The position numbers were made by a program, and so were the translations under genes. Shown piece by piece: positions 6,745 to 7,663 of a DNA stretch of 64,000 nt (position 1 is the stretch's first letter; every line of letters begins with the position of its first letter). Below the pieces are notes generated by a model. That model saw nothing but the letters and a program-made list of their open reading frames with translations, was not told the origin of the DNA and did not search any database. The stretch lies in NCBI RefSeq assembly GCF_056746865.1, contig NZ_CM163382.1. The stretch is one strand, 5' to 3'.

Positions 6745-7663
6745 ATATTATCACTTACTGGCGGCTCATACTGAGCTGGTTAATGCTGTGCACACACAAA
6801 CAAGCAATTCCATTTGTAATGTGCCTCCCTGGCAGTTTCATCCGGAACCCGGACGAAAGTAAAAATGCATATGAGTTGCACTAAAAAAGCGACTCACATT
6901 GTTCCGTTATAATGCCTGAAGTAGATCACAGAATATATCTTCAGGAATCGCATATCTATTAAGTTACTCACTCTTTTGTATTTATGACATGCGCGTGTTT
7001 GTATAAATGTAAATGTGAGTCCTTGTTCCACTCTCGTGCAGCATCGCTGGTCATACGCGAACACGTACAAACAGCAATGGTGAGGCGGCATCAAGAGCAG
7101 GGATCCGTCATTTATGCGAGCATTTTACCCCAAAAACCTTTTATTTATAAGGGTCATTGCGAATTATCTGATGCAAAGTTATGTTATGTTAGGCAAAGTA
7201 ATCTTCTATTATTAATAAGCACAACAAAACCTTTTTGAATATTAAATAATAATTAATTAGCATCATCCTCATACATTAATCCCGCTTAACAATAGTTTCA
7301 CACCTTGCACCCATTACGACACCTCGGAAATCATCACGCTGTTAAACTCTCCGTAATGCGGAAATATCATCATCACGATTCATTAGTGAATTCTTAAACG
7401 AGGTATTTTCAAACAATTATCTTACAGATAAAAAAACCACACTCACAATTAAGAATCAGAACAATTCACTACATAACATTAATTATTAAGCATATACACC
7501 TCATTATTTTGCCATTATTAAGTTATTAACAGCACAATCGAGTCTTCCCCTCTGGCAAAATCTTATTCTGCAGACCTTCAAAACGCCGTCCTGGGGGAGT
7601 ACATTGTTCTAAGCTGACTTCCACGGCAGGGAGTGGCGATAACAGCAAAAAAGGTCAAGATTC
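6745..7663. promoter_or_regulatory. Very long AT-rich intergenic region between divergent lrhA and alaA (about 920 bp, no convincing ORF)
   Basis: No ORF over 85 aa and none with protein-like composition; strongly AT-rich; must hold the lrhA and alaA promoters and leaders. Confidence 0.5.

Follow-up and report, generated by a model that had tools for sequence, protein, structure and literature searches.

What is held in the unusually long stretch of DNA that separates the divergently transcribed genes lrhA and alaA of Escherichia coli? In the 64,000-nucleotide sequence analyzed here (contig NZ_CM163382.1 of the NCBI RefSeq assembly GCF_056746865.1; its full length is hereafter referred to as the window), the listing of open reading frames (ORFs) leaves a non-coding gap of 919 bp, positions 6745..7663, between lrhA, which encodes a LysR-type regulator of 312 amino acids (5806..6744, minus strand), and alaA, which encodes a glutamate-pyruvate aminotransferase of 405 amino acids (7664..8881, plus strand), both genes being identified from the ORF list and the K-12 annotation. 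The data presented below make it very probable that this gap is a compound regulatory region serving the two divergent genes, with no hidden gene inside. Its main features are already on record in the literature: the long lrhA leader, the binding of Hfq, three repressing small RNAs (sRNAs), the binding of Lrp and OmpR, and the unusual length itself. Apart from the length, all of these were established experimentally. The present work adds a family-wide map of 188 constrained nucleotides among the 919, assigns window positions to the published start site and to the UhpU contact, proposes a promoter and a leader for alaA, and excludes hidden coding genes. It also reveals that the two promoters keep a conserved distance although the sequence between them is not conserved, which bears on the de-repression of lrhA and of its Serratia counterpart pigU by insertions located far upstream. 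The level of LrhA matters, as this protein stands near the top of the hierarchy controlling motility, fimbriae, RpoS and, as was recently reported, CRISPR-Cas in enterobacteria.

The long lrhA leader, which the first-pass annotation of this DNA (made from the sequence alone) had listed among several possible contents of the gap, is real. A leader of 371 nt was reported for lrhA mRNA (eLife 2023), and the primer SM079 from the supplement to that study, which opens the lrhA part of the lrhA-lacZ fusion, starts with ATAAATGACGGATCCCTGCT. Since this sequence matches the minus strand of the window exactly, from position 7115 down, the published lrhA start site is the A at 7115, and the 5' leader occupies 6745..7115 on the minus strand. 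Visual inspection shows a GC-rich hairpin with a T-run behind it approximately 60-80 nt past the lrhA stop codon; the implied lrhA mRNA of about 1.39 kb is compatible with the published transcript of about 1.5 kb. A simple terminator scan does not call this hairpin after lrhA, its loop apparently being over the limit of the scan. The predicted fold of the whole leader has a minimum free energy (MFE) of -112.2 kcal/mol and is modestly better than those of shuffled sequences (z = -2.38).

Conservation of the gap was analyzed with 80 loci from distinct Enterobacteriaceae species, fetched with LrhA as a probe. In 78 of them alaA is divergent from and upstream of lrhA, and the gap measures 764-1140 bp (median 943); these 78 species underlie the conservation values given below. 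The neutral yardstick was provided by the four-fold degenerate positions of the lrhA and alaA genes, where identity to the window averages 0.40-0.42. The mean identity of the gap is 0.46, and its distribution is strongly blocky, 188 of the 919 nucleotides falling into blocks whose smoothed identity reaches 0.62 or more. Exactly such a comparison across Enterobacteriaceae had been proposed in the first-pass annotation, which had named uniformly absent conservation as the contrary outcome; what was found is a clear alternation of constrained and free segments. The constrained blocks comprise three near the lrhA start codon, in the leader (6749-6765, 6775-6790 and 6802-6815, minus strand), three coinciding with the proposed -10, -35 and approximately -50 elements of lrhA (7123-7133, 7142-7153 and 7157-7171, minus strand), two AT-rich boxes located between -125 and -185 of lrhA (7240-7257 and 7286-7300), and four on the alaA side (7558-7566, 7573-7584, 7595-7607 and 7615-7650). 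Family-wide conservation rises exactly at 7115, that is, at the published lrhA start site. The pattern remained unchanged when only Escherichia, Citrobacter and Salmonella were considered.

The AUG-proximal leader blocks coincide with the part of the mRNA at which sRNAs were reported to act. In a 2014 Hfq coimmunoprecipitation study, RNAs of 150 nt and 350 nt were recovered and first classed as intergenic, "ig-lrhA-alaA"; both were demonstrated in the same study to be fragments of the lrhA transcript of about 1.5 kb, which was strongly upregulated in an hfq mutant. Subsequently, chimeras of the lrhA leader with UhpU, ArcZ, RprA and McaS were detected by RNA interaction by ligation and sequencing (RIL-seq), and an lrhA-lacZ translational fusion was repressed by UhpU, ArcZ and RprA, McaS being without effect (eLife 2023). 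A compensatory mutation reported there proves direct pairing of UhpU with lrhA. Affinity purification of RprA with its partners (MAPS) enriched lrhA 744-fold, and RprA induces decay of lrhA mRNA. The UhpU contact can be placed precisely: in the lrhA-M1 gBlock, GCCGCGAGT replaces GCCGCCAGT of the window, so that the compensated nucleotide is C6760, at -16 from the AUG. The pairing site (6752..6768, minus strand) contains this nucleotide, adjoins the ribosome-binding region and overlaps the block 6749-6765 (identity 0.72). A scan in which each sRNA was limited to its known single-stranded seed region predicted a duplex of the UhpU sequence ACUGGUG at -24..-8 of the AUG. The same scan yielded the best duplexes at -46..-27 for RprA and at -52..-33 for McaS, pointing to a candidate site for both sRNAs at 6771..6796 (minus strand; GUGUGCACAGCA against UGCUGUGUGUA of both sRNAs), which overlaps the block 6775-6790 (identity 0.80). 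For ArcZ, the duplex at -99..-80 suggests a candidate site at 6824..6843 (minus strand; CCAGGGAGG against the ArcZ seed UUUCCCUGG). Hence the UhpU position is anchored experimentally, while those of RprA, McaS and ArcZ are predicted from sequence. All four seed-restricted duplexes lie within the conserved AUG-proximal 100 nt. The most conserved leader block, AAAUGGAAUUGCUU (6802..6815, minus strand), has a mean identity of 0.86, and constraint at the leader target blocks ranges from 0.72 to 0.86, as compared with the neutral 0.40-0.42.

Upstream of the leader, conservation and the distance to the start site point to a putative lrhA core promoter (7122..7150, minus strand) with a -35 hexamer TTATAA (7150..7145), a 17-bp spacer and a -10 hexamer TAAAAT (7127..7122), the latter lying seven nucleotides upstream of 7115. 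TTATAA is found in 64 of the 79 sequences compared, and TAAGAT, TAGGAT or TAAAAT in 69 of them. Adjacent to the promoter, at about -43 to -57, a block with the sequence TCAGATAATTCGCAA (7157..7171, minus strand; mean identity 0.74) is a candidate activator site. Farther upstream lie the two AT-rich boxes. On the lrhA strand, box 1 (7240..7257, about -125 to -142; mean identity 0.75) reads ATTAATTATTATTTAATA and contains an ATTAA-N7-TTAAT dyad, and box 2 (7286..7300, about -171 to -185; mean identity 0.70) reads TGAAACTATTGTTAA; the spacing between the boxes is 26-28 bp in 79/79 sequences. Published chromatin immunoprecipitation (ChIP) and gel-shift work provides Lrp, OmpR and LrhA as candidate binders of box 2: ChIP-seq placed lrhA among the direct targets that Lrp activates, ChIP of OmpR revealed raised binding at the lrhA-alaA spacer, and LrhA is known to positively autoregulate its own gene. 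Genomic SELEX (systematic evolution of ligands by exponential enrichment) gave RNA polymerase peaks on both sides of the spacer, with no H-NS flag there. The suggestions that the gap could hold nucleoid-protein binding sites and multiple promoters, also made in the first-pass annotation, agree with these published data on Lrp, OmpR and RNA polymerase, as well as with the two divergent putative core promoters visible as conserved blocks.

Several observations made on the same segment concern insertions and repeats. In the clinical E. coli strain eco-241 (locus L087), whose spacer is otherwise 100% identical to that of the window, a 777-bp insert, the insertion sequence IS1, is flanked by a 9-bp target duplication, GGGTCATTG, at 7151-7159, directly upstream of the proposed lrhA -35 hexamer. 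Lying between that hexamer and the block at about -50, the insertion separates the core lrhA promoter from every conserved box farther upstream. In addition, IS5 was reported at -137 of lrhA in a Keio strain, and lrhA was described as a hotspot of hypermotility mutations. Upstream of the lrhA promoter, a tandem pair of 20-nt sequences, TTATCTGATGCAAAGTTATG and TTATGTTAGGCAAAGTAATC, 75% identical, occupies 7164-7203, and two copies of a 14-nt motif, ATTATTAATAAGCA and ATAATTAATTAGCA, lie 41 bp apart within 7208-7262, the second overlapping box 1. These direct repeats may serve as repeated binding sites for proteins, but in AT-rich DNA families of two copies can also be produced by chance.

At the opposite end of the gap, conservation suggests a core promoter for alaA (7577..7605, plus strand) with a -35 hexamer TTCAAA (7577-7582), a 17-bp spacer and a -10 hexamer TACATT (7600-7605). 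The corresponding blocks, 7573-7584 and 7595-7607, display identities of 0.83 and 0.94, respectively, and TACATT is present in 75 of the 79 sequences. With a putative transcription start near 7612, the predicted alaA leader (7612..7663, plus strand) would be about 52 nt long. It is nearly invariant (identity 0.83-0.91), and its length is kept at 46-53 nt in all species. Both MFE and centroid folds place a 9-bp hairpin with a GGA-rich 3' arm at the 5' end of the leader (7613-7637), which proved to be no more stable than shuffled sequences (z = +0.6). Such a strong constraint suggests an as yet unrecognised control of alaA, at the post-transcriptional or at the DNA level. Just upstream of the -35 hexamer, a pattern search found a match to the Lrp consensus with two mismatches, CAAAATCTTATTCTG (7556..7570, plus strand), overlapping the block 7558-7566. 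In the window, 12 such matches were found versus 7.9 expected, a non-significant excess, with 2 of the 12 falling in the gap. Because the window-wide count is not above chance, this match is regarded as a lead only.

Taken together, these results allow a scheme of how the region might work. The segment from 7115 down to 6745 is transcribed on the minus strand as the 371-nt lrhA leader and bound by Hfq, and UhpU, ArcZ and RprA diminish LrhA synthesis, presumably all by pairing within about 100 nt of the AUG. UhpU pairs at the ribosome-binding region, presumably occluding it and so blocking initiation, and RprA additionally promotes decay of the lrhA mRNA. In this manner, sRNA control would let sugar-phosphate, oxygen and envelope signals bear on motility and the RpoS network. 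Transcription of lrhA would be driven by the weak sigma-70 promoter TTATAA-17-TAAAAT (7150..7122), probably relying on upstream protein sites, i.e., the block at about -50 and the two AT-rich boxes between -125 and -185, with Lrp activation, OmpR binding and positive autoregulation by LrhA as candidate inputs. At the far end, the conserved TTCAAA-17-TACATT promoter and the nearly invariant 52-nt leader would serve alaA.

Certain facts weigh against this scheme. When hybridisation was left unrestricted, the energies obtained for the four sRNAs were no better than those with shuffled leaders: unrestricted duplex folding of the sRNAs with the leader gave meaningless long-loop duplexes, and the energies of a 22-nt windowed duplex scan did not improve on those of shuffled leaders. 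It is thus seed identity together with conservation, and not energy, that speaks for the ArcZ, RprA and McaS sites. RNAalifold, applied to 40 species and to the AUG-proximal 110 nt of the leader only, found no consensus structure. The best candidate, a GCUC-N5-GAGC hairpin, was 72.9% paired, a value reached by 73 of 500 shuffles, and displayed no covariation in excess of theirs; the covarying conserved structure that marks a cis-regulatory RNA of the riboswitch or attenuator type was not observed. The distal 270 nt of the leader are unconstrained in sequence (identity 0.25-0.44). As to the promoters, the SELEX paper predicts other hexamers, CTGCCA-16-TATGAT for lrhA and TTAAGA-17-TATAAC for alaA, and a simple promoter scan called neither of the promoters proposed here, two unconserved sites being called instead. 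Finally, in Serratia an insertion 825 bp upstream of pigU led to its overexpression, which a simple model of a leader plus a promoter fails to explain.

The last observation draws attention to the DNA between the two promoters. Most of this sequence is at or below neutral identity. In the AT-rich segment 7301..7556, little sequence constraint was found, identity to the window being 0.21-0.47 per 20-nt bin, i.e., near the neutral 0.40, and yet its length is conserved, as 7301-7572 measures 258-280 bp in 73 of the 79 sequences. From one -10 element to the other (7128-7599 in the window), the median distance in the 79 sequences is 471 bp, with an interquartile range of 465-474.5; the length of the unconserved distal leader is more variable (interquartile range 310-354). 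Most likely, the approximately 390 bp between the promoter regions (7172-7557) represent a protein-coated spacer. A bolder and speculative interpretation, which we consider unlikely though deserving mention, is that the spacer acts as a length-dependent nucleoprotein element, for instance one wrapped or looped by Lrp or LrhA, which couples the alaA and lrhA promoters and keeps lrhA expression low. What speaks for such an architectural role is that the promoter distance and the 26-28 bp spacing of the boxes are kept while the sequence drifts, along with the effects of far-upstream insertions: PigU is overexpressed when the orthologous alaA-pigU spacer of Serratia carries insertions, and the same effect in E. 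coli is mentioned by the authors of that work. If true, it would explain how very distant upstream insertions de-repress lrhA and pigU.

In size and composition, the gap corresponds to its first description as an AT-rich region of about 920 bp, unusually long for E. coli, between the divergent lrhA and alaA. The GC content of its 919 bp is 0.38 (0.316 within 7172-7557) as against 0.515 for the entire window. Of the 47 intergenic gaps in the 50 kb of annotated K-12 DNA that surround the locus, no other is as long, the next in size being nuoA-lrhA (630 bp) and yfbV-ackA (337 bp). The counterpart in K-12 MG1655 (2406642..2407560) is of equal length and has no annotated feature inside; the LrhA proteins of the window and of K-12 are 99.4% identical. 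Of 5426 complete E. coli genomes, 5425 contain the gap, in most cases with 95-99% identity; it is core chromosomal DNA and not a strain-specific acquisition. A 2014 genomic SELEX study likewise listed the "920 bp-long lrhA-alaA" among the long spacers packed with regulator sites.

The AT-richness itself could be read otherwise, namely as the mark of a remnant, either decayed or acquired by horizontal transfer (a pseudogene, for example, or the scar of a mobile element), which is silenced by H-NS and has no specific function. The low GC content of 7172-7557, the lack of sequence constraint in most of the AT-rich DNA and the occurrence of IS1 and IS5 insertions in the gap would all fit. This is nevertheless highly improbable in view of the presence of the gap on the chromosome of practically every complete E. 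coli genome, of the synteny and similar gap length in 78 species, and of the narrow range within which the -10 to -10 distance is kept; nor were any ORF remnants with homologues found in the gap. H-NS silencing was set aside, given that H-NS is flagged in the SELEX table for neighbouring spacers and not for lrhA-alaA. The existence of a small protein or of a regulatory upstream ORF in the gap is, in our estimation, extremely improbable. Three ORFs do exist: one of 84 amino acids (plus strand, 6984..7238) and one of 66 amino acids (minus strand, 6894..7094), both from the ORF listing, as well as an ATG-initiated one of 28 amino acids found by an ORF search in the lrhA leader (minus strand, 6841..6755), which ends 11 nt before the lrhA AUG, has a stop codon overlapping the UhpU pairing site and is unbroken in both E. 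coli and E. albertii. None of the three has a Pfam match, and a tblastn search of the 80 related loci found the 66-aa ORF interrupted by an in-frame stop in K-12 itself and the 84-aa ORF by stops in the species-representative E. coli and in E. albertii. Over most of the stretch covered by the larger ORFs, the rate of evolution equals or exceeds the neutral one. In every other genus, Citrobacter, Salmonella and Enterobacter among them, the 28-aa ORF contains stops or has no start codon; it remains intact in Escherichia only, where it may be a genus-specific upstream ORF. The 84-aa and 66-aa ORFs, described in the first-pass annotation as non-protein-like in composition, are present, and the small protein which it had allowed for finds no support, these frames being broken in relatives.

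It is also very unlikely that the gap contains an independent, unannotated gene for an Hfq-binding sRNA, separate from the lrhA mRNA and regulating lrhA or other targets. The idea has its grounds in the initial "ig-lrhA-alaA" assignment of the two coimmunoprecipitated RNAs, in the speculation of the Serratia authors on sRNAs in the far-upstream part of the spacer, and in the many leader chimeras of McaS obtained without repression, which would fit a sponge-like role of leader fragments. Yet the short RNAs known from the region are, as stated above, fragments of the lrhA transcript. An Rfam scan of 5000-9000 with E-values up to 1 returned no match in the gap, no terminator-like site was found inside it, and the simple scan called two promoter-like sites in it versus 3.4 expected. 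Beyond the leader and the two promoters, conservation is limited to the two short AT-rich boxes, and the K-12 annotation of the gap is empty. The unannotated sRNA considered in the first-pass annotation thereby receives no support. Outside the gap, at 5695-5766, the Rfam scan produced a sub-threshold match to AaHKsRNA41 (19.6 bits versus a gathering threshold of 97, E = 0.22), which overlaps the lrhA terminator hairpin and is probably spurious.

The compound regulatory region favoured here has its closest parallels in the genes rpoS, flhDC and csgD of E. coli, whose long leaders are hubs for Hfq-dependent sRNAs. Similarly to these, lrhA has a leader of several hundred nucleotides on the mRNA of a global regulator, and this leader binds Hfq, receives converging sRNAs (UhpU, ArcZ and RprA, as well as McaS in chimeras) and mediates repression exerted at the ribosome-binding site or close to it. 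Some of the sRNAs are shared, rpoS being a target of both ArcZ and RprA, and flhDC a target of ArcZ. The direction of control differs, as ArcZ and RprA activate rpoS, whereas all validated effects on lrhA are repressive. Compared with the known hubs, the lrhA leader is conserved only in its AUG-proximal 70-100 nt, while the distal 270 nt evolve freely.

Among orthologous loci, alaA-pigU of Serratia and lrhA of Pantoea were reported to have this gene pair or a regulatory region of similar length; in Pantoea, approximately 921 bp were needed for full complementation. ArcZ represses the orthologues pecT of Dickeya and hexA of Pectobacterium, Photorhabdus and Xenorhabdus through their 5' leaders, pairing at -84..-58 in pecT and at -50..-42 in hexA, to be compared with the predicted position of about -99..-80 in lrhA. 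Control of lrhA by UhpU was reported only for Escherichia and is presumed for E. albertii. With respect to the spacer, csgD-csgB (755 bp) and nanC-fimB (approximately 1457 bp) were assigned in the literature to the same 'type-A' class of long divergent spacers as lrhA-alaA, and in all three, numerous sites for transcription factors, along with SELEX peaks of RNA polymerase, lie upstream of a regulator of stress or lifestyle. More than 20 regulators have been mapped at csgD, whereas the literature examined documents only Lrp, OmpR and LrhA for lrhA-alaA, with no H-NS flag.

A few additional observations relate to sequence divergence and to the neighbouring gap. The spacer of E. albertii (locus L003) is only 76% identical to that of the window, which implies fast divergence, and the LrhA protein of the species-representative E. 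coli (locus L002) shares only 94.9% identity with that of the window. On the other side of lrhA, the nuoA-lrhA gap (5177-5805) measures 629 bp by window coordinates (630 bp in K-12) and has a GC content of 0.345-0.46; it should hold the promoter region of the nuo operon together with the lrhA terminator.

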